From a virus (lineage: Duplodnaviria; Caudoviricetes), in the IMG/VR virus record IMGVR_UViG_3300031760_000009, positions 1 through 64,000 of that record: a stretch of 64,000 bases of DNA. One strand, 5' to 3'. Under the pieces are notes generated by a model that made no database searches, had not been told where the DNA came from, and saw nothing but the letters and a program-made list of their open reading frames with translations. Shown here in pieces: positions 8,587-58,026 of this stretch. Both the position numbers and the translations under genes were made by a program. Numbering within the stretch: the first letter of the stretch is position 1; each line of letters begins with the position of its first letter.

Positions 8587-8960
8587 TTGTACATAATACG
8601 AGCCTGAATAATGGAAATCAACTGATAATCAATAGAATTACTTTTTGCGGTGGCAAAAAGTAATCAAAAAACACGTCTTCATAAAGCTTCGTTTACAGCC
8701 TTGTGAAATTTCATTTCACTTCGGCTTGTCCAGTAAACTCGCTTTATTCGACTTAAAAATCAGAAAACGGCGTAGCCTCATTGAACTTTCAGTTCAATTT
8801 CGGCTTGTCTGTACGCCTTTGTTTTCTGATTTTTAATTGCACATATATCTTTTATTTTGATTTTTGGAATATGAAAATCTTTATTCCAATTTATAAACTA
8901 ATTTGAAATAAGAGTATTAAATAAACTTAAAGATTTAAGCATATGCTTAAATCTTTAAGT
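8587..8960. other. hairpin/palindrome-rich non-coding element, putative replication origin (copy 1)
   Basis: 12-bp stem 8637-8664; nested stem ~8681-8747; 16-bp stem 8753-8768/8821-8836; perfect 36-bp palindrome 8925-8960; 22-mer shared with 58005-58026. Confidence 0.5.
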
Positions 8961-9056
8961 ACAATTAATAACCTTTTATTGAAAATTTATTCTAAAAGAG
9001 ACAGAGTTATTCTATATAGGCTTAAAATTCGGAAAATTCAGTTATAAAGATACAAA

Positions 9057-10127
9057 TCAGTAGAGTCTTATAGCTAATGTATTGCTTGTTACTGCATAGT
9101 TGTACTGATGGTTATATCTTCTCATATTTCTTTCTATAAGATGATTGCCCATAGTTACGCCGATACCGTCAGGAACATACTGTTTCCTGTTATTGACGAT
9201 ATTCTTGCAATTCTTTAGCTGACCCAGATTTGTAACCATAGCTAACATTTTCACGAAGGAAGAAGCCCTAGAAGCACGGTTGCCGTCTTTGTAACCAGTG
9301 ACTTGTCGTTTTGCATGGTAGACACGGGAAGTCTCCAATGCAGCATCGTCACTTAGCAACTTGTTCCATCTTCCGTTGTAGACACAGTAAGTCTTGGTTT
9401 CAAGCCTGTCGATTATTGAGGACATAGATTGTATGTCCTGTTTTCCATCGAAGTCCATAAACTGTACTCCAGTGCAGGATAATAATCGAAATCCTGTTTG
9501 TATGCTCCATCCCAGAAATCTGGAGAGCGTAAATACGTTCATGTCGAGTTCAAGGTCTTTTGCCTCCTGTATTCCGATTTTCCTGTAAACAGGTATTCGT
9601 TTGAAATATAATTTGATGTCATGTTTGGTAATTCCTAATATATTGTATAGAAGACCGCCGTCAAATTCTGCGTTCTTACAGTAGTTTAGAATCTGCACAA
9701 GAAAAGATATTATTGCGAACTTTCTCAGATTCTTTAAAGAACCATATTTTTCTATCTGTTCGTTTGAAAAGTCTACAGATAGATTTGTACCATAACAGGT
9801 TTTCATTATCATTGCATCTGGCACTTCTGAGATTCTGACCCAGTTATTGTCTATATCTGTCTTGTGTATTATCTTTCTGAATGTGAACTTTGTCCTGTCC
9901 TGTGAAAATGCGGAGAAAAGCTTTTCAAAATCAGCTCTTACTTCATGTTCGGACTTTTTCTGATATGATGTATATCGTTTCCATTTGTTGAAAAGGACAG
10001 ATTTTCTGATGATACAACCGCTGTATAAATGTAGTAATGTGAGGAAATCAGCTATCGCACCGCAGTTTTTCCCTGCTTTCTGTATCATTATTATGTGATT
10101 CAGTTGTACAGTTGAATTATTTGACAT
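9057..10127 (-). CDS. orphan 356-aa protein, possibly a replication initiator
   Basis: Long ORF with its own promoter; lies between the origin-like element and the HTH/ParB/primase operon; function inferred from context only. Confidence 0.6.
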   Translation of the reverse strand: MSNNSTVQLNHIIMIQKAGKNCGAIADFLTLLHLYSGCIIRKSVLFNKWKRYTSYQKKSEHEVRADFEKLFSAFSQDRTKFTFRKIIHKTDIDNNWVRISEVPDAMIMKTCYGTNLSVDFSNEQIEKYGSLKNLRKFAIISFLVQILNYCKNAEFDGGLLYNILGITKHDIKLYFKRIPVYRKIGIQEAKDLELDMNVFTLSRFLGWSIQTGFRLLSCTGVQFMDFDGKQDIQSMSSIIDRLETKTYCVYNGRWNKLLSDDAALETSRVYHAKRQVTGYKDGNRASRASSFVKMLAMVTNLGQLKNCKNIVNNRKQYVPDGIGVTMGNHLIERNMRRYNHQYNYAVTSNTLAIRLY

Positions 10128-10245
10128 GTGAACGTACTCTTTCTAAAAAAAAATAATACCACGGCGACTTAAAAATGTCAATAACCGTAGTATTAATTTA
10201 TTCACATGTCACATTTAGTATAGCAGACGTACTTATATATGTCAA
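10122..10245 (-). promoter_or_regulatory. promoter plus structured 5' leader (start-codon-sequestering inverted repeat and terminator-like hairpin)
   Basis: TTGACA(10245-10240)-N17-TATACT; 11-bp IR 10201-10211/10122-10132 covering the ATG; hairpin 10155-10194 followed by a T9 run. Confidence 0.6.
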
Positions 10246-10307
10246 TAAAAATTGTTGCATTTTGTAGCGTTTTGTGATATGGTTAAAATAGAAATGGAAG
10301 TATAAAC

Positions 10308-10586
10308 ATGAATGGAAAAAAAGTACAACTTGCAATAGAGTTATATAACAAACCATCGAATTATATATCACCGTCACAGGCGGCTGAATATCTTGGTGTT
10401 CATATTAATACGATATATAACTATATAAAAACAGATATACTTACGGCATATAGATTCAAAGATGGTGGCAATACGATTTTTATTGATAAAAATGAAATAA
10501 TACGAAAACTTGTTCCTATACCATCAGAAGAAATCAGAAAAACTTTAACTGGTGTGTACCCAGTAAAGAAAGTTTTATATGGCTGA
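10308..10586 (+). CDS. excisionase/MerR-like HTH protein (HTH_17 type)
   Basis: YISPSQAAEYLGVHINTIYNYIK..L.AYR. Confidence 0.8.
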   Translation: MNGKKVQLAIELYNKPSNYISPSQAAEYLGVHINTIYNYIKTDILTAYRFKDGGNTIFIDKNEIIRKLVPIPSEEIRKTLTGVYPVKKVLYG

Positions 10587-10869
10587 TAATCCAGAACAAT
10601 TTAAGAACTGGTTGGATTCTGTAGTCATAAACAATTATGGATATGTTGAAGTTACAGATTCAATAGATGGTTCAAATATACCTAAATCTTTTTATGATAT
10701 GTGTGTTCATTATGGTATTCCTGTGAATCATATGATTACTATTATCATATCTGATTTTATGATGCGTATGGAAAAAGGAAACATACATTATCAGAATGAT
10801 ATTCTGAACAGGATTATGAACAGTAATTTGGACAATAAGGATAAAATACTGGAGGTTATTTATGGGTAA
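10579..10869 (+). CDS. hypothetical protein
   Basis: 96-aa ORF overlapping both neighbours by 8 nt. Confidence 0.6.
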   Translation: MADNPEQFKNWLDSVVINNYGYVEVTDSIDGSNIPKSFYDMCVHYGIPVNHMITIIISDFMMRMEKGNIHYQNDILNRIMNSNLDNKDKILEVIYG

Positions 10870-11875
10870 GGTTACTTTGAGACTTATTCCTAATTTTGAT
10901 ATAAGTCCAGAAAATCTTGATATAGACACATATCAGGTAAGACGTACAAAACGTACACAGAAAGATTTGGACAGGTTGAAAGAACTTATTGTAGCACAGG
11001 GACAGGTTGAACCAATTCAGGTTCTTAAACGTGATAATAAATATTTTCTTATGGCTGGTGCTGGTCGTGTTACAGTACTAAGGTCGCTCGGAAAGACTGC
11101 TAGTGCGTTAGTATATGAAGGTCTTGAAAAAGAAGATATATACAAGATAGCAATTGGTACAAATGATGGTCGTACTGAAATGTCGGCTTGGGATAGAATC
11201 GTATCGGTTGGTGAATATGTTTCTCAAAATAACATGGATGGTTATAGTATTGATTCTTTTAAGAATGTTGTGAAAATATTCGGTCGTAATACATCAAGTC
11301 TTATCCGTGATTATGAATTATGGGAGTTTTATAGCAAGATTCCAGAGTTTGTAAGCTATTTTGAAAAGGTTAATGTTCCTTATTATGTTATGACTATTGT
11401 TGATGAAGTATTGAATCCATATAAGGAAAATATAACAGATTATGGAAAGATAGTTGATATTGTCAAATCAAATGCTACAAAACCTGGTATGACGATGAAA
11501 CTGTTTATGAATCTGTTTGTTAAGGATTTCACAAGGATTGCCGTAGACCTGAAAAACAAGGTGATGGAAGTTAATCGTGGAGATGGACTTACTGCTGAAG
11601 AAATATATGATATTGAAAACAATATACACAATGCGATTGTAGACAGGATTGAAAAGAAAGTAGTTACAAAGAAAAAGCCTGAAATAATAAAGGATGATAT
11701 TACATTAAAATGCGAACGTATAATGACGATTTTGATGAATCATTGTATGGGTGCTATAGAAAATATGAACAAACTTTTGAAACTTCCATATCGTGAACGT
11801 ATTCCGTCATCTATGATGCTGAAGCTTTCAAGACTGATAACAAAACTCAATCAGACAGGAGTAAAACTGCTTTGA
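10862..11875 (+). CDS. ParB/Srx N-terminal-domain protein
   Basis: YQVRR...L..LI..QGQVEPIQV...YFLMAGAGR..N..R pattern. Confidence 0.75.
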   Translation: MGKVTLRLIPNFDISPENLDIDTYQVRRTKRTQKDLDRLKELIVAQGQVEPIQVLKRDNKYFLMAGAGRVTVLRSLGKTASALVYEGLEKEDIYKIAIGTNDGRTEMSAWDRIVSVGEYVSQNNMDGYSIDSFKNVVKIFGRNTSSLIRDYELWEFYSKIPEFVSYFEKVNVPYYVMTIVDEVLNPYKENITDYGKIVDIVKSNATKPGMTMKLFMNLFVKDFTRIAVDLKNKVMEVNRGDGLTAEEIYDIENNIHNAIVDRIEKKVVTKKKPEIIKDDITLKCERIMTILMNHCMGAIENMNKLLKLPYRERIPSSMMLKLSRLITKLNQTGVKLL

Positions 11876-12840
11876 ATGTTGAAAGCATATTAACCAAACT
11901 GAACATACCGTATAAAACAATCAAAGGCGGTCGTGAACTACAGTTCAGATGTATATGTCCTAATCATAATGACAGACATGCATCGGCGTGTATCAGTACC
12001 GAAAGTGGATTGTGGCATTGTTTCAGTTGTGGTGAGTCTGGAAATCTGCGTTCATTTGTAAAAATCGCTGGTGGTGATGGTATAGATGTCCGTAACTTTG
12101 TTACACAAACAGATGATTTGAAAATGCGTATGAGCAAGATATATAGAGAATCTGCAAAGAACATTCTTAAATATGAAAATGATTTAAAATTTGAAGAACA
12201 GTTTAGAGTAGAATGTGTCGATAATTTTGTAGATGCATTTACTAATAAACTTTCATATAATTATTTATGTAAAAAACGCAAGCTTACTCTTGAAACCATA
12301 CAGAAATTCAATCTTATGTATTCTGTAAGTGGGCAGTATTCAAATCGTGTAATTATACCATATTGTGAAAATGGTGATATAATCGGGTTTAACAGCAGAT
12401 ATATCGGCAAATGTGAGTCTTCTTACAGATACAGATATAATATTAATACGACACGGTTTGAATCGTATCTGTATAATTTTGAAAATGTAGAAAGTTATGA
12501 TTATTGTATTCTTGTAGAAGGACCGTTTGATTTAATGTATATGGTACAATGCGGTTTCAAGAATGTAATATCTACATTAAATACAAGAGTATCGTTGGGT
12601 CATATTAAAAAACTAATAAAATTTAAAAAAATCATATTCTGTTTTGATAACGATATTGAAACTCATGCAGGTCAAAATGCTGTTATGAAGCACGCTTCCG
12701 AAATCCTGTCATTGTGTCCTAGTGCTAATCTTTATATGGTTAAACTGCCCGAAGGAAAAGACCCAAACGAATGTACGTCTGAAGAACTTCATGAATCTTT
12801 CAGACACATACACAGGATTAAAATTGACAATGATGTTTAA
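11872..12840 (+). CDS. DnaG-like DNA primase (CHC2 Zn finger + TOPRIM)
   Basis: C..PNH.D..S...WHCFSC; LVEGPFD; FCFDND; KDPNE. Confidence 0.9.
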   Translation: MNVESILTKLNIPYKTIKGGRELQFRCICPNHNDRHASACISTESGLWHCFSCGESGNLRSFVKIAGGDGIDVRNFVTQTDDLKMRMSKIYRESAKNILKYENDLKFEEQFRVECVDNFVDAFTNKLSYNYLCKKRKLTLETIQKFNLMYSVSGQYSNRVIIPYCENGDIIGFNSRYIGKCESSYRYRYNINTTRFESYLYNFENVESYDYCILVEGPFDLMYMVQCGFKNVISTLNTRVSLGHIKKLIKFKKIIFCFDNDIETHAGQNAVMKHASEILSLCPSANLYMVKLPEGKDPNECTSEELHESFRHIHRIKIDNDV

Positions 12841-13348
12841 GACGCATGATAAAAGCCTGTAGATTTGCACCAGGACAGGAAGTAAATTCCTTGTCACGAT
12901 GGCAGAATATGTTTTCTGGTGCTTTTATTGTTTTATAATCATGTACAAGCTTTCTTACAAGCCATACTATTGATACTTTCATTTCATCTGGAACCTGTTC
13001 GGAATTGAAATTACCGAAACACATAATTGCAATAGAACCTTTATCATACATATTACAGTGTTTGCCCATCGCATCTGGTGGTCTTCCTTCGTAAATATCA
13101 CCATTTGGTACGATTATATAATGGAACGGAATATCTATGAGACCTTCTTTATGCAAAGCCTTGTCCTGTATATAACGGATAGAATTGTCATCGTTGAAAA
13201 TCTGTGTAGCTTTAAAATTGGAATTTGATGAAGAAAATCCGTAATGATGGAATATTATATATTTTGGTATCTGTGGGAAGTATATATTTGTAGGTTCTGA
13301 CGCACCCCACATTTCCCTTGTTATAATATTAGGCTGTTTAAAATTCAT
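12818..13348 (-). CDS. N-acetylmuramoyl-L-alanine amidase (Amidase_2/PGRP-like endolysin)
   Basis: IITREMWGA, IIFHH, DIPFHYII, EGR, GNF, CHRD..TSCPG. Confidence 0.88.
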   Translation of the reverse strand: MNFKQPNIITREMWGASEPTNIYFPQIPKYIIFHHYGFSSSNSNFKATQIFNDDNSIRYIQDKALHKEGLIDIPFHYIIVPNGDIYEGRPPDAMGKHCNMYDKGSIAIMCFGNFNSEQVPDEMKVSIVWLVRKLVHDYKTIKAPENIFCHRDKEFTSCPGANLQAFIMRLKHHCQF

Positions 13349-13803
13349 TTCGTTGCGATAAAAATAGATAATCCCAGAACAAGAATATTTTTAATTCTGT
13401 TCGCCGCTTTCGATTTTCTCAACGAGCGAGATACATTCTTCAATGATTTGTCCTGCTGTTCCAGTAAGTCCGATTGACCTTTCAGTTGAATCCTGTACTG
13501 CTGACAGTCCTTTTTCGATTCTTCCAGCAGTTCCGATACCCGTATCAAGTTCTCTTCTGACAGTTCCAATGTCCGTTCTGACATTATCAACTGTTGTCTT
13601 AGCTCCTGCAATTCGTTTCTCTGTTTCTCTAATTCTTCTCTGGAGTTCCTTAGTTCGTCTTGCAAGTTCCCTGTTATTCTCCTCAATAGTATCAAGCGTT
13701 CTTTCAACTTCTGAATATTGCTGTTCTGTTGTGACAAATCCTGCGATAAAGCCGAGTGCGACAAACAGAACAATAATAGGAATAATACTATGATTCTTTT
13801 CAT
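13345..13803 (-). CDS. spanin-like coiled-coil protein (signal peptide + C-terminal hydrophobic tail)
   Basis: MKRIIVLFLLLFC..., long heptad coiled coil, ILVLGLSIFIA at the C-terminus; ATGA-coupled to the amidase. Confidence 0.55.
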   Translation of the reverse strand: MKRIIVLFLLLFCLSHSALSQDLSQQNSNIQKLKERLILLRRITGNLQDELRNSREELEKQRNELQELRQQLIMSERTLELSEENLIRVSELLEESKKDCQQYRIQLKGQSDLLEQQDKSLKNVSRSLRKSKAANRIKNILVLGLSIFIATK

Positions 13804-13807
13804 TCAT
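13391..13807 (-). CDS. i-spanin (Rz)-like protein
   Basis: N-terminal TM helix followed by coiled coil; almost fully overlaps 13345-13803 in another frame, inside the lysis cassette. Confidence 0.55.
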   Translation of the reverse strand: MNEKNHSIIPIIVLFVALGFIAGFVTTEQQYSEVERTLDTIEENNRELARRTKELQRRIRETEKRIAGAKTTVDNVRTDIGTVRRELDTGIGTAGRIEKGLSAVQDSTERSIGLTGTAGQIIEECISLVEKIESGEQN

Positions 13808-13854
13808 GGTCCACCAGTAATGACATTATGAAATACGAATAAGCTGTTATAAAG

Positions 13855-14112
13855 TTATAGAGATGCTGATTGTCCATCGTTATTACTTCCTTTACAGTTA
13901 TAGTGCTTGTCAAGAACACGGATTCCAGCGGAAGAACCAGCGGCTAGAATAGAGAACGTAGTATAATCGAATTTTTCTGGAGATACTTTCAGAATAATTA
14001 TAGATACTATAAGGAATGTCATATAACCTGCGAAAGCCATAACCTTACTTAAAGACAGATAACCGTCTTTGCCATAAAAACTACCAATTATTCCATTAAA
14101 AAACTGTTTCAT
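13855..14112 (-). CDS. putative holin (2 TM), start MKQFF
   Basis: AAGGA RBS; LSLSKVMAFAGYMTFLIVSIIIL and a second hydrophobic stretch; lysis context. Confidence 0.55.
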   Translation of the reverse strand: MKQFFNGIIGSFYGKDGYLSLSKVMAFAGYMTFLIVSIIILKVSPEKFDYTTFSILAAGSSAGIRVLDKHYNCKGSNNDGQSASL

Positions 14113-14123
14113 ATAAACATTCC

Positions 14124-14546
14124 TTAAATAATGTATAATTCTACACTTCCTGTTTTTGGGAAGATTTTCATAAGCTTCATGAAAGCATTTCTGCTTTCTG
14201 TTATGTCTGTTATTCCGTCTCCGTTGATGTCCGAAAAGTCTGTACCAACGAGAATACATCCTGATGTATCAGTGAATCTGTTACCAATGTGCATTAGAAT
14301 CGCATCCCGATTCGGAACACCATTTACTAGAATATGTTCGTAGTTGAATTTCTGTGTCGGATTTCTTCTTGTACATAAATATCGACCTGTGGGGATGCAG
14401 CTTATATTACGCTGGTTTGAAAGGTTTGGTTTTTCCAAAGTGCTGAATACGCCTAGCGTTGTTTTGTTATCCATGATGTACAACCAGCCTAGCGTTTCTT
14501 TTTCTCCGTATTCAAAACGTCTTAGAATCATTACAATATCATTCAT
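14124..14546 (-). CDS. DUF5675-like (L,D-transpeptidase-fold) cell-wall enzyme
   Basis: TLE.P...SCIP.G.Y...VPNR..ILMH.GN...DTSGCILVG...SR.AF. Confidence 0.8.
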   Translation of the reverse strand: MNDIVMILRRFEYGEKETLGWLYIMDNKTTLGVFSTLEKPNLSNQRNISCIPTGRYLCTRRNPTQKFNYEHILVNGVPNRDAILMHIGNRFTDTSGCILVGTDFSDINGDGITDITESRNAFMKLMKIFPKTGSVELYII

Positions 14547-14863
14547 ATGTTATCTCCGTTCATTCTATCTGCTCGACTGTTTGTGAATTTCATATTGATG
14601 TTGTAATCATTACCACAATCACCACATCTATACCAGTGCTGTTCGTTCAATTTTATCTCGAACAGATAACCACCACAAGGACAATAATGGTAAATCTTAC
14701 CGTCAAACATTTTGCTCGTACATAGGCTTGATGACGGTAATTCCTGTTCGTCCAAAAAGACCAAGTTGTTGTGGTTTTGTCGGATTTCCGAGTATATTCC
14801 ACCAGTAATGTCGTTCTGATATTCTTTCAGATTTCCTTTTTGAACTTTCTTTTTCTTTGCCAT
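14543..14863 (-). CDS. Zn-ribbon hypothetical protein
   Basis: CPCGG...CGDCG. Confidence 0.6.
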   Translation of the reverse strand: MAKKKKVQKGNLKEYQNDITGGIYSEIRQNHNNLVFLDEQELPSSSLCTSKMFDGKIYHYCPCGGYLFEIKLNEQHWYRCGDCGNDYNINMKFTNSRADRMNGDNI

Positions 14864-14866
14864 TCA

Positions 14867-15127
14867 TTATCGCACATAAGCTGTTATAAGGCAACCTACA
14901 ACAGAACCAAGAGTGCTTACAATCGTTCCAACGAACGCAAATACTGCTAATATAATCTTTTCTCTTGATTCAAGCCTAATCATATCTGTTTTCAAATTGC
15001 TGACACTTTCTGTAAGTTCTTTCATAGTTTTGTTCGACTCCTTTATAGATTCCTGTAGGTGTTCTATTTCAACTACTAGCTTACCGTGGTCAGGGCAATT
15101 TGTACATTCAACAGGCATAACAATCAC
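14867..15127 (-). CDS. coiled-coil + C-terminal TM protein (XhlA/holin-like)
   Basis: coiled coil followed by IILAVFAFVGTIV... Confidence 0.55.
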   Translation of the reverse strand: MIVMPVECTNCPDHGKLVVEIEHLQESIKESNKTMKELTESVSNLKTDMIRLESREKIILAVFAFVGTIVSTLGSVVGCLITAYVR

Positions 15128-15150
15128 CTACTTTCTAAAATAAAACAGAA

Positions 15151-15489
15151 CTATTGCTGTTGTTCAGTTTCGACAATAGTTCCGTTTGCGTATCTTGAAT
15201 CGTGAGCTATAAGATATGTATATACAGCTTTTTCAATCTGTTTATACGGGTTTGTGATTGTTGTATCAAGTTCAAGTTCGTTCTTTGGAATTGAAAAACC
15301 ATAATCATCAATTTGTCGTCCATCATCTTGATAGCCGTTAAAATTATATGCAGTCAAGTCTGCATAGCTTCTTATAGTGCCGTTTACCAAATCCTGTAAT
15401 ATATTATATTCAAAAATCTTATGAATACCGTTTGGAAATTCGGCATATTTCTGATTCATATTTCTTGAAATCGATTTCTGTATGTGCAT
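15151..15489 (-). CDS. hypothetical tail-associated protein
   Basis: GGAG RBS; position after the fibre module. Confidence 0.55.
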   Translation of the reverse strand: MHIQKSISRNMNQKYAEFPNGIHKIFEYNILQDLVNGTIRSYADLTAYNFNGYQDDGRQIDDYGFSIPKNELELDTTITNPYKQIEKAVYTYLIAHDSRYANGTIVETEQQQ

Positions 15490-15568
15490 AATATTTTCTC
15501 CGTTTATCAGATATATTCTATATTAACAATAGCACAGCGATGACAAAAAGTCAAAGCTGTGCTGTAGA

Positions 15569-16108
15569 TTAAGGTTCGCTTGGTTCAGTGTTTGTATTCT
15601 CATCTCCACCAGTGTTATCACCTGTGTTGTCATCATTACCGTTTGTATTATCGCCACCAGTATTGTCATCTCCACCTGTGTTATCTCCAGTGTTATCTCC
15701 AGTATTATCATCTGGGTCTGGTGTAGGTTCTGGAGTTGGTTCAGGTTCAGTATTTGTGGGTAATACTTCTGACAGGTCGAATAATATTGGACTTTCGTAT
15801 GGTATTACTATAGGTTTAGAAGGTTCAGCGAATGTTACTGTAGAGCCTGTTACGATATTCAGCTTCTTGTATTTGCTGTCACTTATGATAAGATTTATGT
15901 CATATGTACCAGTGCCGTTTATCAGACTTTCAGACGACCTTAGATTCACCTGTAATGGAAATTCAGGATTTACGTATGTCTTGATTACAGTACCCATCAG
16001 AATTTCAAGCTTTTTTATATTGAACGTAGGGTTACTGTAGTCAATCTTGAAAAGACCGCCGTTGAACGAATCAGTATCATCGCCACGATGTAGAGTTACG
16101 TTAGCCAT
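15569..16108 (-). CDS. virion-associated protein, paralog of 27003-27311, with low-complexity acidic tail
   Basis: RGDDTDSF N-terminus shared with 27003-27311; PEPT and GDNTG repeats; AGGAG RBS. Confidence 0.7.
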   Translation of the reverse strand: MANVTLHRGDDTDSFNGGLFKIDYSNPTFNIKKLEILMGTVIKTYVNPEFPLQVNLRSSESLINGTGTYDINLIISDSKYKKLNIVTGSTVTFAEPSKPIVIPYESPILFDLSEVLPTNTEPEPTPEPTPDPDDNTGDNTGDNTGGDDNTGGDNTNGNDDNTGDNTGGDENTNTEPSEP

Positions 16109-16134
16109 TTTATTTTCTCCTTTGGATTAATGAA

Positions 16135-16172
16135 AAACACTGTACACAAGGTTTAGTCATGTACAGTGTTTT
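16135..16172. terminator. hairpin, probable intrinsic terminator
   Basis: aaaacactgtaca...tgtacagtgtttt. Confidence 0.55.
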
Positions 16173-16199
16173 GTATATGAATCGTCTGATGACGAAGAA

Positions 16200-16427
16200 T
16201 TACTTGACCATCAAAGGATTCAACTTATTAGGTTCACGAACCATAACGATTGCTGTTTCAGAATCTTTAACGACCTTGATACAGTCTTTCATGTCGTCAA
16301 ATGCCTGTGAAAGCATACACTGGCTCATTGTTTCCCAATGCTTTTCGATTTCTGACTTGATGTAACAGGCTTTGTTCAACGCAAATTCCTGTATGTCTTC
16401 AAGTTTTGCAATATGTTCTTCTGTCAT
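16200..16427 (-). CDS. hypothetical protein (moron-like, own promoter)
   Basis: 75-aa ORF between a promoter at ~16530-16565 and a hairpin. Confidence 0.5.
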   Translation of the reverse strand: MTEEHIAKLEDIQEFALNKACYIKSEIEKHWETMSQCMLSQAFDDMKDCIKVVKDSETAIVMVREPNKLNPLMVK

Positions 16428-16529
16428 GACTTAATTCACCATTATGCACCAGCGGTAGCTGTAGTTTAACAAGGATGTTATTATCCATAACAGTTAACTC
16501 CGTCACTAGATTGCTTCATATACAAATAT

Positions 16530-16567
16530 AGTATAAACAATCAGATGTCAAATGTCAAATGTCAAAT
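16530..16567 (-). promoter_or_regulatory. promoter with three tandem -35 boxes
   Basis: TTGACA three times at 7-bp period; middle TTGACA-N17-TATACT. Confidence 0.6.
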
Positions 16568-16581
16568 AATTTTGTACAAAA

Positions 16582-16609
16582 ATAATACGGATTTTTAAAT
16601 CCGTATTAT
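16582..16609. terminator. palindromic hairpin
   Basis: ataatacggatttt/taaatccgtattat. Confidence 0.55.
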
Positions 16610-16671
16610 CTTATGGAAAAATAAAGAAAGGAATGATTGAAAATTATATTAGAAATAAATAATTAAAAAAA

Positions 16672-49144: not shown

Positions 49145-49164
49145 GTTTAGTCAACCATCAATTA

Positions 49165-50595: not shown

Positions 50596-50618
50596 ATTTG
50601 TAGTTTCCTTTCGTAAAA

Positions 50619-51899
50619 TTATTTAACTTTGGCACCAAAATTGGCTAAATAATAATCTTTAGTCATTGGGGCGAGTCCTGAAATATGACGCATTTCGTTT
50701 CTACCATTAAAATCGGCATACTGTGCTGGATTCAAACCATCATGTAGATTTTCTTCCTTCTTTTCTGCTGATTCGTCAGTCTGCAAAGTCTTACCAGTTG
50801 CAGGAACAGTAGATTTTTCTTTCATTTCTTTAACAATTTTGGAATTGTTTTCGTAAACGGTTTTGACATCTTCTTTTGAAACACAGTTGTCAAAAACATT
50901 CTTGAAAGATTCAAGTGCGAAGAAATCTGGGTCAGAAACTTTCAACTGTTCGATGTAAGCTTCTTTTTCTTTTTTCGCAAACTCGATTTTACTGTCATTA
51001 ATCTGTTTTTCAAGACTTTCGACTTTCTTAGTTGCTTCTTCAAGCTTCTTGTTCAATTCGGTAATTTCGGCATCTTTAGCCTGAAGTGCTTCGGATTCCT
51101 GAATTACTGTGAACTTGTCTGGAGCCAATTCTTTAACAGATTCTACAAGTTTGTCAAATGCTTGTGATTTAGCATTAACAGATTCGTTGGCTGTCTTAAC
51201 ATTGGCTTCGAGGTCTGTTATTTTGGTTTCAAACTCTTTTTTAACATCGGCACAGGCTGATTCTGCAATCTGTTTGCAAAATTCAGGATATTCCGATTTA
51301 AGTTCTTCTATGTTTTTAGCCATCGAAGATGTTCTCCTTTGTAAAGATTCCATGTGCAGTTTCATATACATCTCGGTGTCGAGAACCGCAGGGTCATCGA
51401 CAAAATCAACAGACTGTAATTCCCAGTTGGTTATTTTTTCTACTGTCTGTTTGTTACCATTAGAATCAACCCATTCGTAATCTTCTGATTCACCTGTTCC
51501 ACGAGTGGAAACACCAATCTTGGAACCAGCATCCAGAATAGCCTTTAAATTACGTCCACTGTCTGTGTCTAATATCTGTGCAGTATAATAGGCATAGCCA
51601 TCGTCCTGAACATCTGTTATGGATAACAATAATCCAGCAGAGCGTTCAAGGCTTGGACCTTCAAAGAATCCCGGATGGTCGCAAAGCATACGAATACGCT
51701 TTTCTTCAACCATAGGTCGAAGTTTTGCGATTGCGGCATTTGCAACTTCTTTTGGATAAATTCTATGATTACGATTAGGTATATCGACTCTTGTAAAAGG
51801 TCCAGAAATTATATACTTACTAGGTGCTTTCGCATCAGTCTTATTTGCTTCTTCGACCTTTTTTATATCAAGCCAATATATTTCATGCAGTTCTTTCAT
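50619..51899 (-). CDS. prohead protease (T4 gp21-like) fused to coiled-coil scaffold
   Basis: NRNHRIYP, DHP, T.SG..L, IGVSTRGTG, DFVDDPA; C-terminal coiled coil. Confidence 0.88.
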   Translation of the reverse strand: MKELHEIYWLDIKKVEEANKTDAKAPSKYIISGPFTRVDIPNRNHRIYPKEVANAAIAKLRPMVEEKRIRMLCDHPGFFEGPSLERSAGLLLSITDVQDDGYAYYTAQILDTDSGRNLKAILDAGSKIGVSTRGTGESEDYEWVDSNGNKQTVEKITNWELQSVDFVDDPAVLDTEMYMKLHMESLQRRTSSMAKNIEELKSEYPEFCKQIAESACADVKKEFETKITDLEANVKTANESVNAKSQAFDKLVESVKELAPDKFTVIQESEALQAKDAEITELNKKLEEATKKVESLEKQINDSKIEFAKKEKEAYIEQLKVSDPDFFALESFKNVFDNCVSKEDVKTVYENNSKIVKEMKEKSTVPATGKTLQTDESAEKKEENLHDGLNPAQYADFNGRNEMRHISGLAPMTKDYYLANFGAKVK

Positions 51900-51938
51900 A
51901 ATGATTAATCTCCATTAATTATACTAATAAATTATAAT

Positions 51939-52094
51939 CTATTTGTCAAATTTTTTAATTCTGACAAACGTGTAATATAAAGGATTTGGTATATTTGCAA
52001 TTACAGAAGCTTTATAAATACGCATAAATTCATCAATATATTTATCGTTAAAGCCCTGTTCTTTCAATCGTTGTTTAATAAGGCTATCTCTCAT
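51939..52094 (-). CDS. possible 51-aa hypothetical protein (not in ORF track)
   Basis: MRDSLIKQRLKEQGFNDKYIDEFMRIYK...; GGAG RBS; overlaps the upstream stop. Confidence 0.4.
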   Translation of the reverse strand: MRDSLIKQRLKEQGFNDKYIDEFMRIYKASVIANIPNPLYYTFVRIKKFDK

Positions 52095-53202
52095 CTATAT
52101 TGCTCCTGTCAACAAATACGTGCATTGTGTCTTGATTTAATGTTATACGTTCACCAGTAAGTGTCATACATACAACATTACCAGCATTGTGATAATCGAC
52201 TTTTGCATAAATCTGTTCATTTTTATGAAAGACTGATACAATATCACCGTGATTTAATCCAGAATAATCAGTTATATATTCAAAGTTTTCCGACTTCATA
52301 AATGTATTAAATTCGGATAAATATGTAGAAACAGGCAGTTTTATATTAATTGCAAGGTCATTGAAATTTATATAACCTTTCATAATATCTTTAACATTAT
52401 TTGCAAACCTGTTATATTTCGGGTCTTTTGTCCGTGCATACTCACCCTTATAGTAATAATACTGTTCAAGCCAAGTATTTATACTGTCATATTCATAATC
52501 CTGTGGTACATTCTTCCTACCATTAACAGAATTGAAATTATTAAGTACAAAATCAAGATATTCACTGTTGTTATCATATCTTAATCTGCATTTACAATTA
52601 CATAAACATTCTGTATATCCAGACTTGGGTATCGTAGGCAACGCCTTTTTCGTATATGGACTGTTGTGTGCCAATGACAGACAGCTATGACAATGCTTGT
52701 CAGTACTCCCTAATATCCAGTATATATGTGAATCTTCTGCAAGATATGCTATGTTTCCGAATGTAAAAAGACTGACAAGACTGTCTGAATACATCTTCAA
52801 ACGTCTGTTATATGGCATTTTACCACCACCAGACAATACATCATCGGCAAACTTTTCCATAAACCTACATTCAGAAGATACAAGACTCGAAAGCATACGG
52901 TTTTCATATTCTGTAAGATTCTTTTCTGTCTGCTGTGAATAAAGTTTACCTAAAAGGTAAGCATTTTTGAATGACGTGCTGATTGCTTCTTTCTGCATTG
53001 AAAGATATTCAGAACGGTTCAGCTTACCTTTTATGAAACTATTAAGATTACGACTTAAATCAAGAGAGTAATTCTGTCTAACTCTGTTAAATGTAGACAG
53101 ACAGGAAATCTTCGATGTAGAGGAACTGTTGACTGTCGTACCGACAGACAAGTTCCTTTTCATCGCAGATTTAGAAAATTTCTGTTCTTCAATTTCCATC
53201 AT
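52084..53202 (-). CDS. head morphogenesis protein (MuF/SPP1 gp7-like)
   Basis: W......HCHSC..LA...PY....P..P.....CLCNCKCRL; follows the portal. Confidence 0.7.
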   Translation of the reverse strand: MMEIEEQKFSKSAMKRNLSVGTTVNSSSTSKISCLSTFNRVRQNYSLDLSRNLNSFIKGKLNRSEYLSMQKEAISTSFKNAYLLGKLYSQQTEKNLTEYENRMLSSLVSSECRFMEKFADDVLSGGGKMPYNRRLKMYSDSLVSLFTFGNIAYLAEDSHIYWILGSTDKHCHSCLSLAHNSPYTKKALPTIPKSGYTECLCNCKCRLRYDNNSEYLDFVLNNFNSVNGRKNVPQDYEYDSINTWLEQYYYYKGEYARTKDPKYNRFANNVKDIMKGYINFNDLAINIKLPVSTYLSEFNTFMKSENFEYITDYSGLNHGDIVSVFHKNEQIYAKVDYHNAGNVVCMTLTGERITLNQDTMHVFVDRSNIDER

Positions 53203-54925
53203 AGCTTTGTAATATGTCTATAAGTGCTGTAACACTAGCCATCAGATTAGGATTCTTCTTGCACATTTCCATATGTTCCTGCCAAGACTTGAACTGTTCT
53301 GGAGTAAGCTTGTTTTCCATAATCTTCATCAGTTTTTCCTGATTCAATGATTCACGACCATGTTCACGGTTCCACTTAGCCCAACCGCTTTCATCATCAC
53401 CTTCACCAGTCTTGTTCTTATTTGTATTTGGTGCAGAATTTGGATTTTCTTTATTTTTAGCCTGAATTTCAGCTTGTGCTTCTGACTGTCTCAAACGGCG
53501 TTCATCTTCTTCATCACGCATTACTTCGACTCGTGATTTCAAATCTTCGGCTTCTGCATCAGTCATACCAAGTATCTTGGTATATACATACATATCATCA
53601 ACAACCTGCATATTCGTTTTAAGAATTTCAGCAACCTGTGCACGAAGTTTTGCGATTGTAGCCTTTCTTTCTTCATCGACTGTCAGACCTGTTGGATATG
53701 ATATTCTCAAATCGTTTTCATTAACATCAACACCTTCTATAAGAAGTATATTCTTATACAGTTTCTTAATCTGTGGTGCAATTATTGTCTGGATTCTTCG
53801 TATTCTTCTAAGGAAACCTGCAACCTGATTATCTGAAGTTGATTTGGAGTTCAAGTCGTTTTCCTTACCAATTAGAAGTTTCGGAGTTCCTGTAGAATAT
53901 ATCAGCTTATCCTGACAATACTTGATGTCATCAATATCTTTCAATGAATTACCTGTATTTGTCAATGGAATTACATTACCACCAGAACCCTGACGTGTTG
54001 GAACCATTATATCTTCTATAATAGACAATGGGTTATAATCCCAGTTGAATTTACCTGTTCTTGGGTCGTAATATTTCCTACGCATTATACGTTTCTTGTA
54101 CATATCCAAGAAATCCAATGCTTCTTTACCCTGTAATTCACCAACGTCAACTATCATTGCATAGTTCTGATTCGCTCTTGAAAGACGGGTAATCATCATA
54201 CCTTCTTCCATAAGCTTGACCTGTTTATACAGAGTTCTTGAATTTTCAAGCATCGACTGACCTTTACCGTATTTGGTAAATCTTTCACGGTCTGTATTAA
54301 GACAGAGATGGAAAATTTCAGTGTCCTGAAATACTGAATGTACCTGACCATCGATTTCCTGTACAAGAACATCTCCGACTGTTGCTGGAAATCCATTAAC
54401 AAGTATTGGAATACAGGTCTTTATAGGTATATTTCTGAATCCAAGAAACTTGTTTCCTGTTACATTAGTAACAAGTTCCTCGAAATTATCGCCATATTTG
54501 AGCATTGCACGTACCATTGGGAAAAGCTTTTCCTGTAGAGAAACACGTGTTTCAATCTCATCTATCTTAGCCTGTACATTCGGGTCATCATGCATTACCT
54601 TTACAACACGGCTTTCATCGTCATCGGTATTCGGATATATGATATAATCTGCATTAACATCAAGAGCCGCCTTTATTTCAGGAACTTCCAAATCCATCTG
54701 ATTAAACTCTTCATATCGTACACCGTCTTTACCATCGACATAAAGTTCTTTCTTTATCTTGTTACCCCAATAGTCATTCATCTGTATATATGCGTAATCA
54801 TCGGGATTACTAACAGAACGACCACTATCGGGCTTTTCGTCACGGTCGTTTTTACTGACGGGTTGTTTTTTATCTTCGATACGGCTATATCCAAAATAGC
54901 CAAAAAGATTATCAATTAATCCCAT
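53189..54925 (-). CDS. portal protein, T4 gp20-like
   Basis: PEI..ALD; LMEE.MMI.RLSRA..VDVGEL....A; EDI.VP.R.G; DIDDIKY.QDKL. Confidence 0.88.
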   Translation of the reverse strand: MGLIDNLFGYFGYSRIEDKKQPVSKNDRDEKPDSGRSVSNPDDYAYIQMNDYWGNKIKKELYVDGKDGVRYEEFNQMDLEVPEIKAALDVNADYIIYPNTDDDESRVVKVMHDDPNVQAKIDEIETRVSLQEKLFPMVRAMLKYGDNFEELVTNVTGNKFLGFRNIPIKTCIPILVNGFPATVGDVLVQEIDGQVHSVFQDTEIFHLCLNTDRERFTKYGKGQSMLENSRTLYKQVKLMEEGMMITRLSRANQNYAMIVDVGELQGKEALDFLDMYKKRIMRRKYYDPRTGKFNWDYNPLSIIEDIMVPTRQGSGGNVIPLTNTGNSLKDIDDIKYCQDKLIYSTGTPKLLIGKENDLNSKSTSDNQVAGFLRRIRRIQTIIAPQIKKLYKNILLIEGVDVNENDLRISYPTGLTVDEERKATIAKLRAQVAEILKTNMQVVDDMYVYTKILGMTDAEAEDLKSRVEVMRDEEDERRLRQSEAQAEIQAKNKENPNSAPNTNKNKTGEGDDESGWAKWNREHGRESLNQEKLMKIMENKLTPEQFKSWQEHMEMCKKNPNLMASVTALIDILQSYDGN

Positions 54926-54964
54926 AAAAATTTACTCCTTTTATTACACATACTAACAGATAAT

Positions 54965-56932
54965 TCAATGGGTGTAAAGATATTGAAGCAATCTATCCTT
55001 TGCCTCATCACCTGTATTGAAAAGATTATTCTGATTCCTGTACGCTTCTGCATCATCTGTTTCAACAAACGACATCAGCAGGTCTTCATTACCATAACAG
55101 GGGTCAACGTGCATATTGTATATCAGCGAACCGAGAGCATCGGCAACGTCCTTGCTACCCATTACAGGGTGGTCAATCTTGTTCCTTACATAGTCACGTT
55201 CAAGTTCGTTAAGCTCAATTTCGACCTTTTCATGATATACACAACGGATTCTACCTTCATACAACGCACCTCTGAATGTTTCATACGGTTCTGTCGTCTT
55301 ATCCATTGATATATACGACATCTTGATACCCATGCGTTTCAACTGCTGTTCCATATCCTTAGACTGGAATCCGTCTGCCGAACCACGTCTTATAGAATAT
55401 CCACGCTTTCTCAACTGCTGAATCATATATCTCGCACGAGAAAGTTCAACTTCACCAAATTCCTTTTCTGGTCTTATTTCAAGTAACATTTCAACAACAC
55501 ACAGGGGCATCTTTTCATCTACATATTCAATCTGATTTGTTTCTGGATTGAATATCTCACGTTTTATATACTTGTATCCTTCTATATAACCACATGCAAA
55601 TCCCATACTGTCATGAGATATACCGATATCCATCGCTATATATCTTGGTTTTTCAGGGCACTTCGGTTTTGACATTATATATTCAGCGGCAACCCATTCT
55701 GGTTTAGGACTCAATGTTGCCTTATCAACCGAGAATACTCTTGGTAATGAACTGTCAAACATTTCGACAATCTTATCCTTGTTTCCGATGAATGGTTGTA
55801 CTGCATGTATGCCAAGACCTGCAATATCACGCATTGCGTTTTCAATGTCGCTGTCAAACTTGTCGTAAAAATCCATAGGAACATTTATTACATTTCCTTC
55901 AGGCACATCACCATCGTGTAATATTCTCGAACGTCTGTTCAAATCACCGACTTCAACTTGGAACTCTTCTTTTGAATATGCCTGTCTGTTGACTTTCCAC
56001 TGATTATAATCCATTATATAGACTTTCTGTACTCCAGTCTTACGTTCAGTTTCCAGACATTCTGCAATATGTTCTGATGTAAAATCATTTGGATATACAC
56101 GAGAAGAACCAAGATACAGGATTCCTGGCTTCTTATTGTATTTCATAAAACGTGAATCAAGTCTTCTTCTTAAACTTCTATATAATGTTCTTGCAGCATC
56201 GAACATGCCACCACTTTCACCCTCAGAACGTCTTGAGTTCTTGATTTTTCTGAAGAAGTTAGCTTCGTCCATTGCTCCAGAAAACAGGTTCAACCCTATG
56301 TTTGCACTATGCGAACTTGATGCAGGGAACAATTCTATCTTATTAGGAAACAAAAGAGAATCTGTAGATTTTCTTTTATTGAACATAAAGTTATCACGAA
56401 AATACGGTATATTCTCTATCATACCTTTAACAGTCTGGAATATGTTCTTCTTACCCTGTGTTTCAGTAACAGACACGATGATTATACCGATAGGAGAATC
56501 TGGAGCAAGCATATAGAATCTCTGAGGTGACTTGAAACAGCTAAGATAATACAACTGCCACAAGATACCGATTTCCATAAAGAAAGACTTACCCCAACCG
56601 ATTGAACCAGTCAGTACAACTTCCTGTATCGTTGATTCTGGAGAGTGTATCTTTATGAAATCTTCTTTCAGCTTCGGATACATAGATTCAACGACACCGA
56701 TACCTGTCTGTGGATTCACACCGCAATAATAAGGGTCTTCCAAGAACTGTTTAGGACTGACCATCTCCCATTTATAAGGGTCAGCTTCTTTTATAATTTC
56801 TCCATACAATTCCTGAATAGTTGACAAAACAAGTTCCTCATTACCTTTATATTCGGTAAGGAGCTGGTCGATGAAATCCTTATGAATCGTTTTCATAAGG
56901 GTATTTTTAATCGTTTCTAATTCCTTATTCAT
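54965..56932 (-). CDS. terminase large subunit
   Basis: Walker A GSIGWGKS, Walker B AMDEANF, nuclease IAMDIG, DGFQS, KIDHP..GSKDVADA. Confidence 0.9.
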   Translation of the reverse strand: MNKELETIKNTLMKTIHKDFIDQLLTEYKGNEELVLSTIQELYGEIIKEADPYKWEMVSPKQFLEDPYYCGVNPQTGIGVVESMYPKLKEDFIKIHSPESTIQEVVLTGSIGWGKSFFMEIGILWQLYYLSCFKSPQRFYMLAPDSPIGIIIVSVTETQGKKNIFQTVKGMIENIPYFRDNFMFNKRKSTDSLLFPNKIELFPASSSHSANIGLNLFSGAMDEANFFRKIKNSRRSEGESGGMFDAARTLYRSLRRRLDSRFMKYNKKPGILYLGSSRVYPNDFTSEHIAECLETERKTGVQKVYIMDYNQWKVNRQAYSKEEFQVEVGDLNRRSRILHDGDVPEGNVINVPMDFYDKFDSDIENAMRDIAGLGIHAVQPFIGNKDKIVEMFDSSLPRVFSVDKATLSPKPEWVAAEYIMSKPKCPEKPRYIAMDIGISHDSMGFACGYIEGYKYIKREIFNPETNQIEYVDEKMPLCVVEMLLEIRPEKEFGEVELSRARYMIQQLRKRGYSIRRGSADGFQSKDMEQQLKRMGIKMSYISMDKTTEPYETFRGALYEGRIRCVYHEKVEIELNELERDYVRNKIDHPVMGSKDVADALGSLIYNMHVDPCYGNEDLLMSFVETDDAEAYRNQNNLFNTGDEAKDRLLQYLYTH

Positions 56933-56984
56933 ACTTAAAATTTAACACAAAAATAAAATTTTGTAAAATGTTTAAATTTTTTTG

Positions 56985-57013
56985 TTGACTTGAAAAATTA
57001 ACTATGATAATAT
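56985..57013 (+). promoter_or_regulatory. sigma70-type promoter for the non-coding unit
   Basis: TTGACT-N17-TAATAT with TGn extension; same form as the promoter at 8525-8553. Confidence 0.7.
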
Positions 57014-57018
57014 GACAT

Positions 57019-57850
57019 TATGCGAATGGGAAATATGTGTCGCATTTATTTAATGTAGGTATATCCTGTTAAAGAACACATATAGAACACTTGCATACGA
57101 GGCGTAGTCTTGGACATACAGCTACTAGTGATGCTGTTACGGCACTTGCAGGGCGTACGTAACATTTCGACAAGCTAGGTTCGATTCATTGGCAACAATG
57201 ACTTAGACTGTTAAGTTCCTACTGCAAGACGATACTCTTCAAAGTTATAGTGTGTATGAGGTTGCAAACTCATACACACAACACCACACAGTAATGTGTG
57301 AAGTTCAAATATCAACTTTGATAAATATAAGACTTTGATAAATAGCTAATAAAATTTTCGGGGTTTCAATCTCTGCATTGGTAATTCAATGGGTTGAACG
57401 GATGGTAAAACATCTCTGTAGTCGAAATAAAAACGACACTACCTGAATTTCAACAGAAAACTACGGTTTTACTGTATTATCATCATTAATTTATATTTCT
57501 GATGATAAGTTCCATAAACACATGACCATACCTGAAATATGGAATCATTATTGTTTATAGAATTGATTAACAATGTCTTTATGACAATAACCATATCTTA
57601 ATTGATATGTACAGAGAAATTATTGTTTTATGCCTTGTAAAACATATATTTCAAGTACGTTATTATTATGACTGATTTTCAATAAAATTATTCATATATT
57701 GTTAATCTACTTTAAAACTGTATTTTTCATTGAAATTCAAACCCCGAAAATTTTACCTATATAAATCTTATTATGTCTTGTTAACTACTTTCATATAATA
57801 AATTCCTTTTCTTTTAAAAAAGAGTTAAGCATGAGCTTAACTTTTTTTTT
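57019..57850 (+). ncRNA. putative large structured non-coding RNA (~830 nt)
   Basis: No ORF >=60 aa; >15 stems; GNRA and cUACGg loops on the + strand; long-range stems; promoter and terminator at its ends. Confidence 0.65.
57816..57850 (+). terminator. intrinsic terminator-like hairpin
   Basis: aaaaaagagttaagc-atga-gcttaac followed by T9. Confidence 0.65.
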
Positions 57851-58026
57851 AATTTTAGTTTTAATTGATTTTTAATGATTTTTAAAGATATATACGTTTT
57901 ACACGAGCGTGCACAGCTAAAGCTGTAGCGAGTGTAAAACTTCCCCTTGAGGGGTTAGGGGTGGTATTTTTGGTTACTTTTTTAAAAAGTAACATCAAAG
58001 ATTCTTCAGGCTCGAATTATGTACAA
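57816..58026 (+). other. origin-like element (copy 2, inverted relative to 8587-8960)
   Basis: Same motif order: ttaagc..gcttaa palindrome, T-rich tract, aaagatatat, hairpin, ttacttttt/aaaaagtaa hairpin, 22-mer. Confidence 0.5.

Follow-up and report, generated by a model that had tools for sequence, protein, structure and literature searches.

The replication origins and other cis-acting signals of uncultured large phages are, to our knowledge, almost unknown, and such signals are usually guessed from A/T-richness alone. A phage contig in IMG/VR (IMGVR_UViG_3300031760_000009; 123,353 bp, 32% G+C) raises the question of what a pair of non-coding sites within it is for. In the first 64 kb of the contig, the stretch analyzed here and called the window, a 22-mer, TTCAGGCTCGWATTATGTACAA, occurs at two sites: site A, behind the gene of a 356-amino-acid (aa) orphan protein, and site B, behind a large non-coding unit next to the gene for the large terminase subunit (TerL). 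Are these two sites copies of one element, and if so, what reads it? Comparison of the sites with each other and with related phages indicates that they are paralogous copies of a single conserved non-coding module of ~280-450 nt, which is weighed below as a possible replication element.

The first-pass annotation of this DNA had described two inverted sites 49 kb apart that share the 22-mer. This description was confirmed: with up to three mismatches allowed, the 22-mer has exactly two copies, both in the window and in the whole 123,353-bp genome, where none is expected by chance (0 matches in 100 shuffles of the window; 0 matches to the reversed pattern in the genome). There being no further copy in the rest of the genome, the 22-mer is not an ordinary operator found at many promoters. 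The inverted repeat around it reaches 26 nt at 92% identity.

The likeness of the two sites extends beyond the 22-mer. Read in its own direction, each copy of the module begins with a word that follows the upstream unit, continues with a T-run palindrome (a predicted terminator) and an A/T tract ending in AAAGATATAT, and then has site-specific hairpins, a T-run with a hairpin of the form GRTTACTTTT-loop-AAAAGTAAY (here called the A/T hairpin) and, after a spacer of 4-28 nt, the 22-mer. The homology begins ~80-100 nt further upstream than the site boundaries first given, with TTCCGAA..CCTATATA (9013-9034) at site A and CCGAAAATTTTACCTATATA (57744-57763) at site B. The motifs are rare genome-wide, with six copies of AAAGATATAT, six of TTAAGCAT, eight of TTACTTTTT and three of AGCGAGT, and they stand in the same order at both sites, as had been proposed. 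The part of that proposal that does not stand is AGCGAGT, which site A has in a 5' stem arm but site B in a 3' internal loop, and which reads AGCGAAG in the related locus L024; its match between the sites is probably due to chance. With the 22-mer left out, exact 8-mers form a collinear chain that scores 52 at best, compared with 26.7 +/- 8 in 500 shuffles, none of which reaches 52; chains of at least 52 also occur in 2 of ~540 other windows of the genome. By sequence statistics alone, the likeness beyond the 22-mer and the A/T hairpin is only moderate. The wider homology is convincing because each sub-motif is kept at its own site in related phages.

Neighboring proteins led to the close relatives. 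The core of site B is 94% identical to that of L023, where the two flanking genes are 90% and 80% identical, and 87% identical to that of L024, where the DNA of the flanking genes is 68% and 66% identical; the module is thus better conserved than the genes beside it. The changes to site A in L020 are confined to one loop, one bulge and a few single letters. L020, L023 and L024 all retain AAAGATATAT, and no version of the module lacks the A/T hairpin or the 22-mer, the stem of the hairpin being invariant in L023, L024, L048 and L049 while its loops vary.

The most distant versions are also the most informative about the partner of the module. L048 and L049 encode homologues of the 356-aa protein (44% and 47% identity) in a different gene neighborhood, and directly past each homologue gene lie 660 and 517 nt, respectively, of non-coding DNA. 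This DNA contains, in order, a TATATA word, a terminator palindrome, an A/T tract, a CCCCC..GGGGG-TTTAGGGG element, a hairpin with a TGAAA loop, a GTTACTTTT/AAAAGTAAC hairpin and a homologue of the 22-mer; it includes TTTTTGGTTACTTTT-loop-AAAAGTAACAT and TTCAGGCTTGTATTATGTCC. The link between one element and the 356-aa gene, which the annotation had noticed at a single locus, therefore persists down to 44% protein identity. The closer resemblance of both distant versions to site B than to site A suggests that site B is a copy of an ancestral, protein-linked module that was relocated beside the terminase gene without its protein gene. Taken together, the paralogy of the sites, their uniqueness in the genome and their conservation in relatives uphold the earlier description of a paired, oriented set of cis elements.

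The pattern of change within the module fits that of a folding strand. Between L048 and L049, three pairs of the TGAAA-loop stem differ on both sides (AACGGC/GCCGTT and CGAGGC/GCCTCG, respectively); the site B hairpin of L024 has an extra base pair inserted on both arms; and GTTAC/GTAAC in the A/T hairpin of site B is ATTAC/GTAAT at site A, a compensatory change between A-T and G-C. From arm to arm, the A/T hairpin measures 21 nt at B-type sites but 28 nt at site A. Variation is free in the loops and spacers, in contrast to the stem of the A/T hairpin and the 22-mer, which are conserved as sequence. The two hairpins peculiar to site A share an inner frame, GACAAGCC-GAA...RA-GGCT with a TGAAA or GAA loop, on unrelated stems. 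The predicted RNA fold of site A is strong (-85.8 kcal/mol, z -7.5), site B has a z of -3.2, and the forward strand folds better than its complement by 2-12 kcal/mol in all seven versions compared. The co-variation of the stems and the variable arm-to-arm length fit a folded single strand rather than a duplex operator.

Searches beyond these loci returned little. No match to either region was obtained in the phage collection at E 1e-5, and a search with a 91-nt core at E 10 gave chance-level rows only. A scan of IMG/VR gave 0 matches to the exact 22-mer, to the CCCC/GGGG element or to the hairpin pattern, and the hairpin with the 22-mer had 0 matches in JGI metagenomes; a degenerate 19-mer had 18 metagenome matches and one viral match, all of them chance occurrences in coding or unrelated DNA. 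Relatives of TerL (49-72% identity) have DNA similarity to neither site, and no homologue of the 356-aa protein was detected in a 120-kb relative (G001). A borderline match of the 91-nt core (E 0.8) lies between genes of Enterococcus phage SANTOR1, in an iteron-rich region (KX284704.1, 36.3-36.7 kb; L170:1190-1650). This divergent intergenic region has GTCTACAC(TTTT) repeats and a hairpin, CACTTTTTT/AAAAAGTG, after CCCTTGAGAGAGTAAGGG and a T-run, a build like that of site B.

The 356-aa protein itself has few relatives. It has no match in Pfam, PHROG or PDB sequences, including searches with sequence profiles against PDB and Pfam; only seven homologues were found among 5.8 billion proteins, and a profile search of IMG/VR found none. 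In the AlphaFold model (predicted local distance difference test score 71), residues 17-113 match many winged-helix domains with Z ~8 in a structure search. A long non-coding region follows the homologue gene in each of L017-L019, L048 and L049, and the gene lies among replication genes in every case: its neighbors in this phage encode a ParB-like protein, a DnaG primase and an SNF2 helicase, and in L048 it follows an SNF2 helicase gene and converges on genes for a 5'-3' exonuclease and a ligase. The adjacency of the winged-helix gene to the module is thus conserved to 44% identity, and the protein matches no initiator family. These data suggest that module and gene together form a rep/ori-like cassette. 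A TnpB/IscB omega RNA locus was considered and rejected, given that the 356-aa protein has no OrfB or RuvC domain and that the sequence after the scaffold, the 22-mer, is conserved and not variable.

The module also appears to stand apart from transcription. The palindromes had been listed among the shared motifs. They are present at both sites, and their predicted role is that of intrinsic terminators of the upstream units, each having a G+C-containing stem, a T-run and a position at the end of a unit. Relatives keep a palindrome at the position of the site A terminator, but with other sequences, and the core of the site B terminator in L023 is identical to the site A core. A convergent gene points its 3' end at the module at site B and in L023, L024, L048 and L049, and at site B and in L048 the far side is visibly closed by that gene's terminator, so that at site B and in the distant relatives the module is a predicted island between two terminators. 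No conserved promoter inside or feeding the module was found in either direction at site A, at site B or in the relatives. Two promoter readings of the 22-mer were rejected: TTGATT-17-TATTAT fits site A only, TTGATA-17-CATAAT on the opposite strand fits site B only, and the relatives keep neither match.

Table 1. Features of the two sites and of their surroundings; positions are those of the window unless a related locus is named.
Feature	Position	Strand	Remarks
356-aa orphan gene (P0001)	9057-10127	-	N-terminal winged-helix domain
Site A, TTCCGAA..CCTATATA word	9013-9034	-	directly past stop codon; kept in L017, L018, L019, L049 and site B
Site A, predicted terminator of 356-aa gene	8925-8960	-	perfect palindrome with 16-bp stem and T-run, core TTAAGCATATGCTTAA; terminator scan
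Site A, A/T-rich tract	8843-8924	-	ends in AAAGATATAT (8843-8852)
Site A, two nested hairpins	8753-8836 and 8675-8752	-	RNA fold
Site A, A/T hairpin	8636-8665	-	ATTACTTTTTGC-CACC-GCAAAAAGTAAT, T-run before
Site A, 22-mer	8587-8608	-	
Sigma-70-type promoter TTGACA-17-TAATAT of 159-aa/SNF2-helicase operon	8525-8553	-	neighbor, outside module
Large non-coding unit upstream of site B	56985-57850	+	promoter to terminator, free of open reading frames, structured
Site B, CCGAAAATTTTACCTATATA word and TATTATGT half-copy of 22-mer	57744-57776	+	same layout in L049
Site B, predicted bidirectional intrinsic terminator	57816-57849	+, also -	core TTAAGCATGAGCTTAA; terminator scan
Site B, A/T-rich tract	57850-57893	+	TGATTTTTAA at 57866 and 57876; AAAGATATAT at 57884-57893
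Site B, hairpin GTTTTACAC...GTGTAAAAC	57896-57940	+	inner ACAGCT/AGCTGT stem
Site B, CCCCTTGAGGGG-TTAGGGG	57942-57965	+	CCCC/GGGG-TTAGGGG element also in L048, L049
Site B, A/T hairpin GTTACTTTTT-T-AAAAAGTAAC	57973-57993	+	after TATTTTTG
Site B, 22-mer	58005-58026	+	
Rex/CRP-type palindrome	58086-58103; L023; L048:4503-4520; L022:6-23		
Bidirectional terminator of convergent 133-aa gene	58126-58162		closes site B island on far side
Large terminase gene	54965-56932	-	
TnpB gene of the phage	3230-4240		apart from module; its end without A/T hairpin
Palindrome arrays upstream of TerL gene in relatives	L004:3232-3482; L016:3545-3850		unit TACTCTTTACGTAAAGAGTA in L004; TGTGTTCTGGCATAC-type unit in L016

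What, then, is the module for? The explanation that we favor, tentatively and at somewhat less than an even chance, is that the pair is a cis-acting, strand-specific replication element, i.e., an origin, a secondary origin or a polar barrier. This reading is favored because a gene and a site travel together as a cassette within replication modules, because the site is insulated from transcription, and because strand-specific hairpins lie beside a unique asymmetric site. In such an element, the asymmetric 22-mer would be bound by a sequence-specific protein, for which the 356-aa protein is the candidate; the A/T tract would melt; the hairpins would fold on the exposed forward strand and act as structure-specific loading or priming signals; and the inverted copies would show the same face to forks or unwinding moving outward from the 49-kb block. 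An A/T-rich tract suited to unwinding is present at both sites, and longer tracts are found in L048 and L049. Protein binding, single-strand folding in vivo and the role in replication are what we infer from this arrangement. The label "origin-like" in the first-pass annotation seems a fair one, given the winged-helix domain, the setting among replication genes and the precedent of oriL and oriR in phage SPP1.

Several observations weigh against a replication role. No clear iteron array was found at either site: TGATTTTTAA is present twice per site, but as direct copies 10 nt apart at site B and as inverted copies at site A; the words TTAAAAA and GTAAAAC are enriched; and TGATTTTT, with 44 copies, is a common word of the genome. 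Both GC skew and AT skew track only the strand of the genes, with no turning point at either site, and GC skew, which had been suggested as a check, is uninformative on the start of replication. The palindrome TTGATTAATCAA, counted at up to one mismatch, has 40 copies in the genome, 37 of them between 68 and 78 kb, and 12 of the 40 lie in a gene-free stretch of 2.1 kb at 75.8-77.9 kb, which has 21.6% G+C and lies at a divergent gene switch; this iteron-rich stretch looks like a more classical origin candidate, although a centromere or an operator array would also fit. The match of the 356-aa protein to winged-helix domains is generic and likely shows a nucleic-acid-binding protein, nothing more specific. 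RepE54 is among its weak Foldseek rows, but RepE-type initiators appear only there (E 0.25-2) and not in the structural re-ranking. The GAAA-type loops and the forward-strand bias would suit RNA equally well. Finally, the A/T hairpin is shared with bacteria of many phyla and may have a general purpose that is unrelated to phage replication.

RNA is the first alternative to be weighed and, although less likely than not, the most probable of them. The module could be made into a small structured non-coding RNA or into a processed 3' tail of the upstream transcript, in which the hairpins could bind proteins or stabilize the RNA, the 22-mer could be a single-stranded seed or binding site, and the 356-aa protein could be an RNA-binding partner. 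Strong folds at both sites, co-varying stems with variable loops, UGAAA/GAAA-type loops and the better folding of the forward strand are all consistent with a transcript, as are G-U pairs that fall mainly on the forward strand and a terminator-like T-run (TTTTTG) after a hairpin in every version. Roquin ROQ domains are winged helices that bind RNA stem-loops, and ROQ is among the weak fold matches of the 356-aa protein. While these features suit an RNA, a strong terminator precedes the module and no conserved promoter lies between that terminator and the hairpins, which leaves an RNA product without a visible promoter: AAAGATATAT has no usable -10 hexamer in three of four versions, and its distance from the TTGATT word shifts from 17 to 20 nt in L024. 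The ~70 stem pairs of site A are nearly all Watson-Crick, with one G-U, and the 22-mer lies beyond the terminator-like T-run. Rfam 15 gave 0 matches in the window at gathering score and, at E up to 5, chance-level rows only in either region.

A different kind of question is posed by the A/T hairpin, which is not confined to this phage. The pattern TTGGTTACTTTT-N1-6-AAAAGTAACAT, with 23 fixed letters, has at least 120 matches in bacterial genomes of many phyla (596 Gb), compared with ~0.1 chance matches as estimated from the length of the pattern and the size of the library. Copies per genome reach 56 in a 1.4-Mb Saccharibacteria genome, 26 in a metagenome-assembled genome (MAG) labeled Gemmatimonadales, 12 in Dehalococcoidia, eight in Sphingobacterium and seven in Oscillospiraceae; the reversed pattern has 0 matches in those five genomes. 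The hairpin also occurs in Acinetobacter and Campylobacterales; the bacterial loci as a whole are L050-L129. Most bacterial copies are intergenic (87 of 95), with no bias in gene orientation, variable loops and unrelated housekeeping genes as neighbors; in one MAG, the hairpin lies inside a repeat of ~340 nt that has no open reading frame. The 22-mer is absent beside the bacterial copies, no Rfam family covers them, and a text search of the literature did not find the hairpin sequence. The presence of an exact, multi-copy hairpin in distant phyla raises the question of which conserved machinery reads it. One speculative answer, which we consider distinctly unlikely, is that GTTACTTTT-loop-AAAAGTAAC is a cross-phylum folded-strand signal for a conserved replication, recombination or mobile-element enzyme, that bacteria from Saccharibacteria to Acinetobacter use it in dispersed form, and that this phage clade combined it with a 22-mer and a winged-helix protein, both private to the clade, in a new kind of duplicated module for origin function or fork control.

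It is rather improbable that the sites are regulatory or boundary sites in duplex DNA, bound by the 356-aa protein or another regulator and governing transcription where gene blocks end, in the manner of OL and OR of phage lambda. Such sites would account for an asymmetric, conserved 22-mer, which at site A precedes the -35 box of the helicase-operon promoter by ~45 nt, and most winged-helix proteins are transcription factors; a Rex/CRP-type palindrome also accompanies the module in four versions. However, the module faces a convergent gene end at site B and in L023, L024, L048 and L049, where there is no operon to regulate, and is therefore not a general operator or promoter of a downstream operon. 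A matching promoter at 100.7 kb has no 22-mer, and the co-variation of the stems and the difference between 21 and 28 nt in arm-to-arm length fit poorly with duplex recognition.

Each module lies directly downstream of a promoter-driven unit, in the same orientation and with the A/T tract next, and the first-pass annotation had proposed transcription-primed origins. In this proposal, to which we give little credence, RNA of the 356-aa gene or of the non-coding unit would prime the leading strand in an R-loop, and the displaced forward strand would fold into hairpins that load a primosome, as in ColE1 RNA II with its primosome assembly site, or oriF and oriG of phage T4. The better-folding strand is indeed the one that such a primer would displace, and the phage encodes both a DnaG-type primase and a DnaB-type helicase. 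The proposal is weakened by the palindrome, at which transcription from upstream should end: a strong predicted terminator stands between the unit and the A/T tract at both sites and in all relatives, and we know of no R-loop origin with such an intervening terminator. Moreover, L048 and L049 again have the gene of the 356-aa homologue as the upstream unit, which makes the large non-coding unit no general partner of the module.

Two further explanations carry less weight. Part of the likeness between the sites could come from a widespread mobile or dispersed hairpin repeat, similar to repetitive extragenic palindromes (REPs) or miniature inverted-repeat transposable elements, and not from descent of a phage element, in line with the seven to 56 copies of GTTACTTTT-N-AAAAGTAAC in five bacterial genomes of different phyla; this is very unlikely, given that the 22-mer, the CCCC/GGGG element, the TATATA word and the terminator core are absent beside the bacterial hairpins and that the position of the hairpin in the module is kept across relatives with only 44% protein identity. 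The earlier suggestion of recombination or packaging sites bracketing the virion genes is hardly credible: the inverted repeats have the size of inversion crossover sites (~26 bp) that could invert the 49-kb block, and site B does lie between a terS-like helix-turn-helix gene and the large terminase gene, but neither serine (PF00239) nor tyrosine (PF00589) recombinases, and thus no resolvase or invertase, matched in the 123-kb genome although control genomes were positive, the module goes with the 356-aa gene and not with terminase in distant relatives, and an inverted duplicate of a packaging signal has no evident logic and is not known to us to be useful. Two other candidates were set aside: a dif/Xer site, of which by inspection only the TTATGTA part resembles a XerD arm, and a giant transposon with TG..CA ends, which has no target duplication or transposase and whose sites are fixed in relatives.

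Some features of the surroundings deserve mention. Of three independent Logan contigs, L017 and L019 break off within the 36-nt perfect palindrome (8925-8960), and L018 stops ~55 nt past the stop codon of the 356-aa gene; these ends are an assembly artefact of perfect palindromes longer than the k-mer and not a genome end. Next to site A, a 33-nt promoter, TTGACAAGTAT..TAAGTATGTTAATAT, occurs at 8521-8553 and, with 94% identity, at 100699-100731, where no 22-mer accompanies it; it is kept in L022, and AAGTAT occurs twice, 10 nt apart, within its spacer, as a candidate operator. The last ~110 nt of the large non-coding unit before site B are homologous to the 3' flank of the 356-aa gene. That this unit of ~800 nt is a decayed copy of the 356-aa gene was rejected, as it retains no residual similarity. 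The unit contains an 85-nt hairpin block (57245-57330) that is absent from the 92% relative L023, and a 24-nt long-range complementarity (57351-57373 with 57732-57755) links its middle to the CCGAAAATTTT word of site B. In the 72% relatives of TerL, ~7 copies of a perfect palindrome lie upstream of the terminase gene, in place of the non-coding unit and site B. The Rex/CRP-type palindrome, TTGTGAA-N4-TTCACA, follows the 22-mer in four module versions and is perfect in L048; the genome has only one other TGTGA-N6-TCACA site, at 79493.

The phage that carries the module resembles an uncultured siphovirus. The final 126 nt of the contig (123228-123353) are identical to nt 16-141, and the assembly is probably closed on itself or terminally redundant, although the record is labeled linear and 75% complete. 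The virion genes encode a T4-type portal, a protease, a major head protein, tape-measure-like proteins and a tail protein of 3968 aa with a transglycosylase domain; a reading of this giant protein as an N4-type virion polymerase was rejected in favor of a tape-measure/transglycosylase tail protein. Besides the DnaG-type primase, the ParB-like protein and the DnaB-type helicase, the replication genes encode two SNF2 helicases, a DNA polymerase, a clamp loader, a ligase, an SbcCD-like nuclease and a RuvC-like resolvase. No isolated phage has a terminase more than 35% identical to the one encoded here. The gene promoters are of the TTGACA-17-TATAAT type, often with an extended TG, and the host looks like a bacterium with Firmicutes-type promoters. 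Sigma-70 region 2 was not detected in the 123-kb genome, and a T7-type RNA polymerase was not found, a weak answer since the search control gave no match in any genome. Outside the window, at 66-78 kb (L044:2000-14000), a low-GC array of small genes has repeated promoter units, and a 13-bp tandem repeat has 18 copies at ~67.9-68.25 kb; the gene-free stretch at 75.8-77.9 kb is part of this array.

How does the module compare with known systems? Lambda nutL/nutR and HK022 putL/putR are paired inverted RNA elements with hairpins, and, like the sites described here, they are two homologous, oppositely oriented elements that each combine a linear box with hairpins. They lie, however, just past promoters and before terminators in long operons, whereas the module comes after a terminator and, in most versions, has a convergent gene ahead of it. 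The A/T hairpin taken alone is reminiscent of REPs and REPINs, which are likewise short intergenic hairpins with many copies per genome, an invariant stem and a variable loop. REPs are species-specific, however, while this stem is letter-identical across many phyla and the phage, and no association with a RAYT-type gene was seen for it. ColE1 RNA II and primosome assembly sites or G4-type signals share with the module strand-specific hairpins downstream of a transcribed unit, and the better-folding strand here is the one that leading-strand synthesis would displace; they differ in that a strong terminator separates unit and hairpins in the module, and sequence similarity is absent.

Replication termination in Bacillus subtilis offers another parallel, and a Ter/RTP-like barrier is attractive by analogy. 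Its Ter sites, polar fork barriers bound by the winged-helix protein RTP, are comparable to the 22-mer: they, like it, are asymmetric sites of ~22-30 bp in inverted orientation, with a winged-helix protein gene nearby, and the heptamer TATGTAC of the 22-mer agrees with the 29-nt Ter consensus, KMACTAANWNNWCTATGTACYAAATNTTC (PMC3317982); the corresponding sequence in L023 and L049 is CTATGTAC. Only this heptamer agrees, and the 22-mer falls short of a match to the consensus; RTP is absent from the structural matches of the 356-aa protein, and Ter sites have no hairpins.

The closest parallel in layout is with phage SPP1, where the initiator gp38 binds two similar origins, oriL within gene 38 and oriR in a long intergenic stretch interrupting the late genes (PMC6316719). 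Bound oriR is thought to stall forks and so trigger the switch to concatemer synthesis (PMC6316719). In both phages, two similar non-coding cis elements with A/T-rich tracts lie far apart in the genome, one tied to the gene of a DNA-binding protein in the replication module and the other in a long intergenic region within the late (virion) genes, near the packaging genes; the host here is apparently also a bacterium with Firmicutes-type promoters. The differences lie in the build of the elements. SPP1 origins are direct repeats (iterons) bound by gp38, with oriL inside gene 38, whereas clear iterons are not seen here, the element lies behind the gene and its terminator, and what stands out in it are hairpins with co-varying stems and one asymmetric 22-mer. 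No similarity of the 356-aa protein to gp38 or to an initiator family was detectable. The comparative definition of the module and its orphan winged-helix protein provides a testable protein/DNA or protein/RNA pair. If the protein is an initiator that acts at two sites, a new phage lineage would share the two-origin logic of SPP1, hairpins taking the place of iterons.

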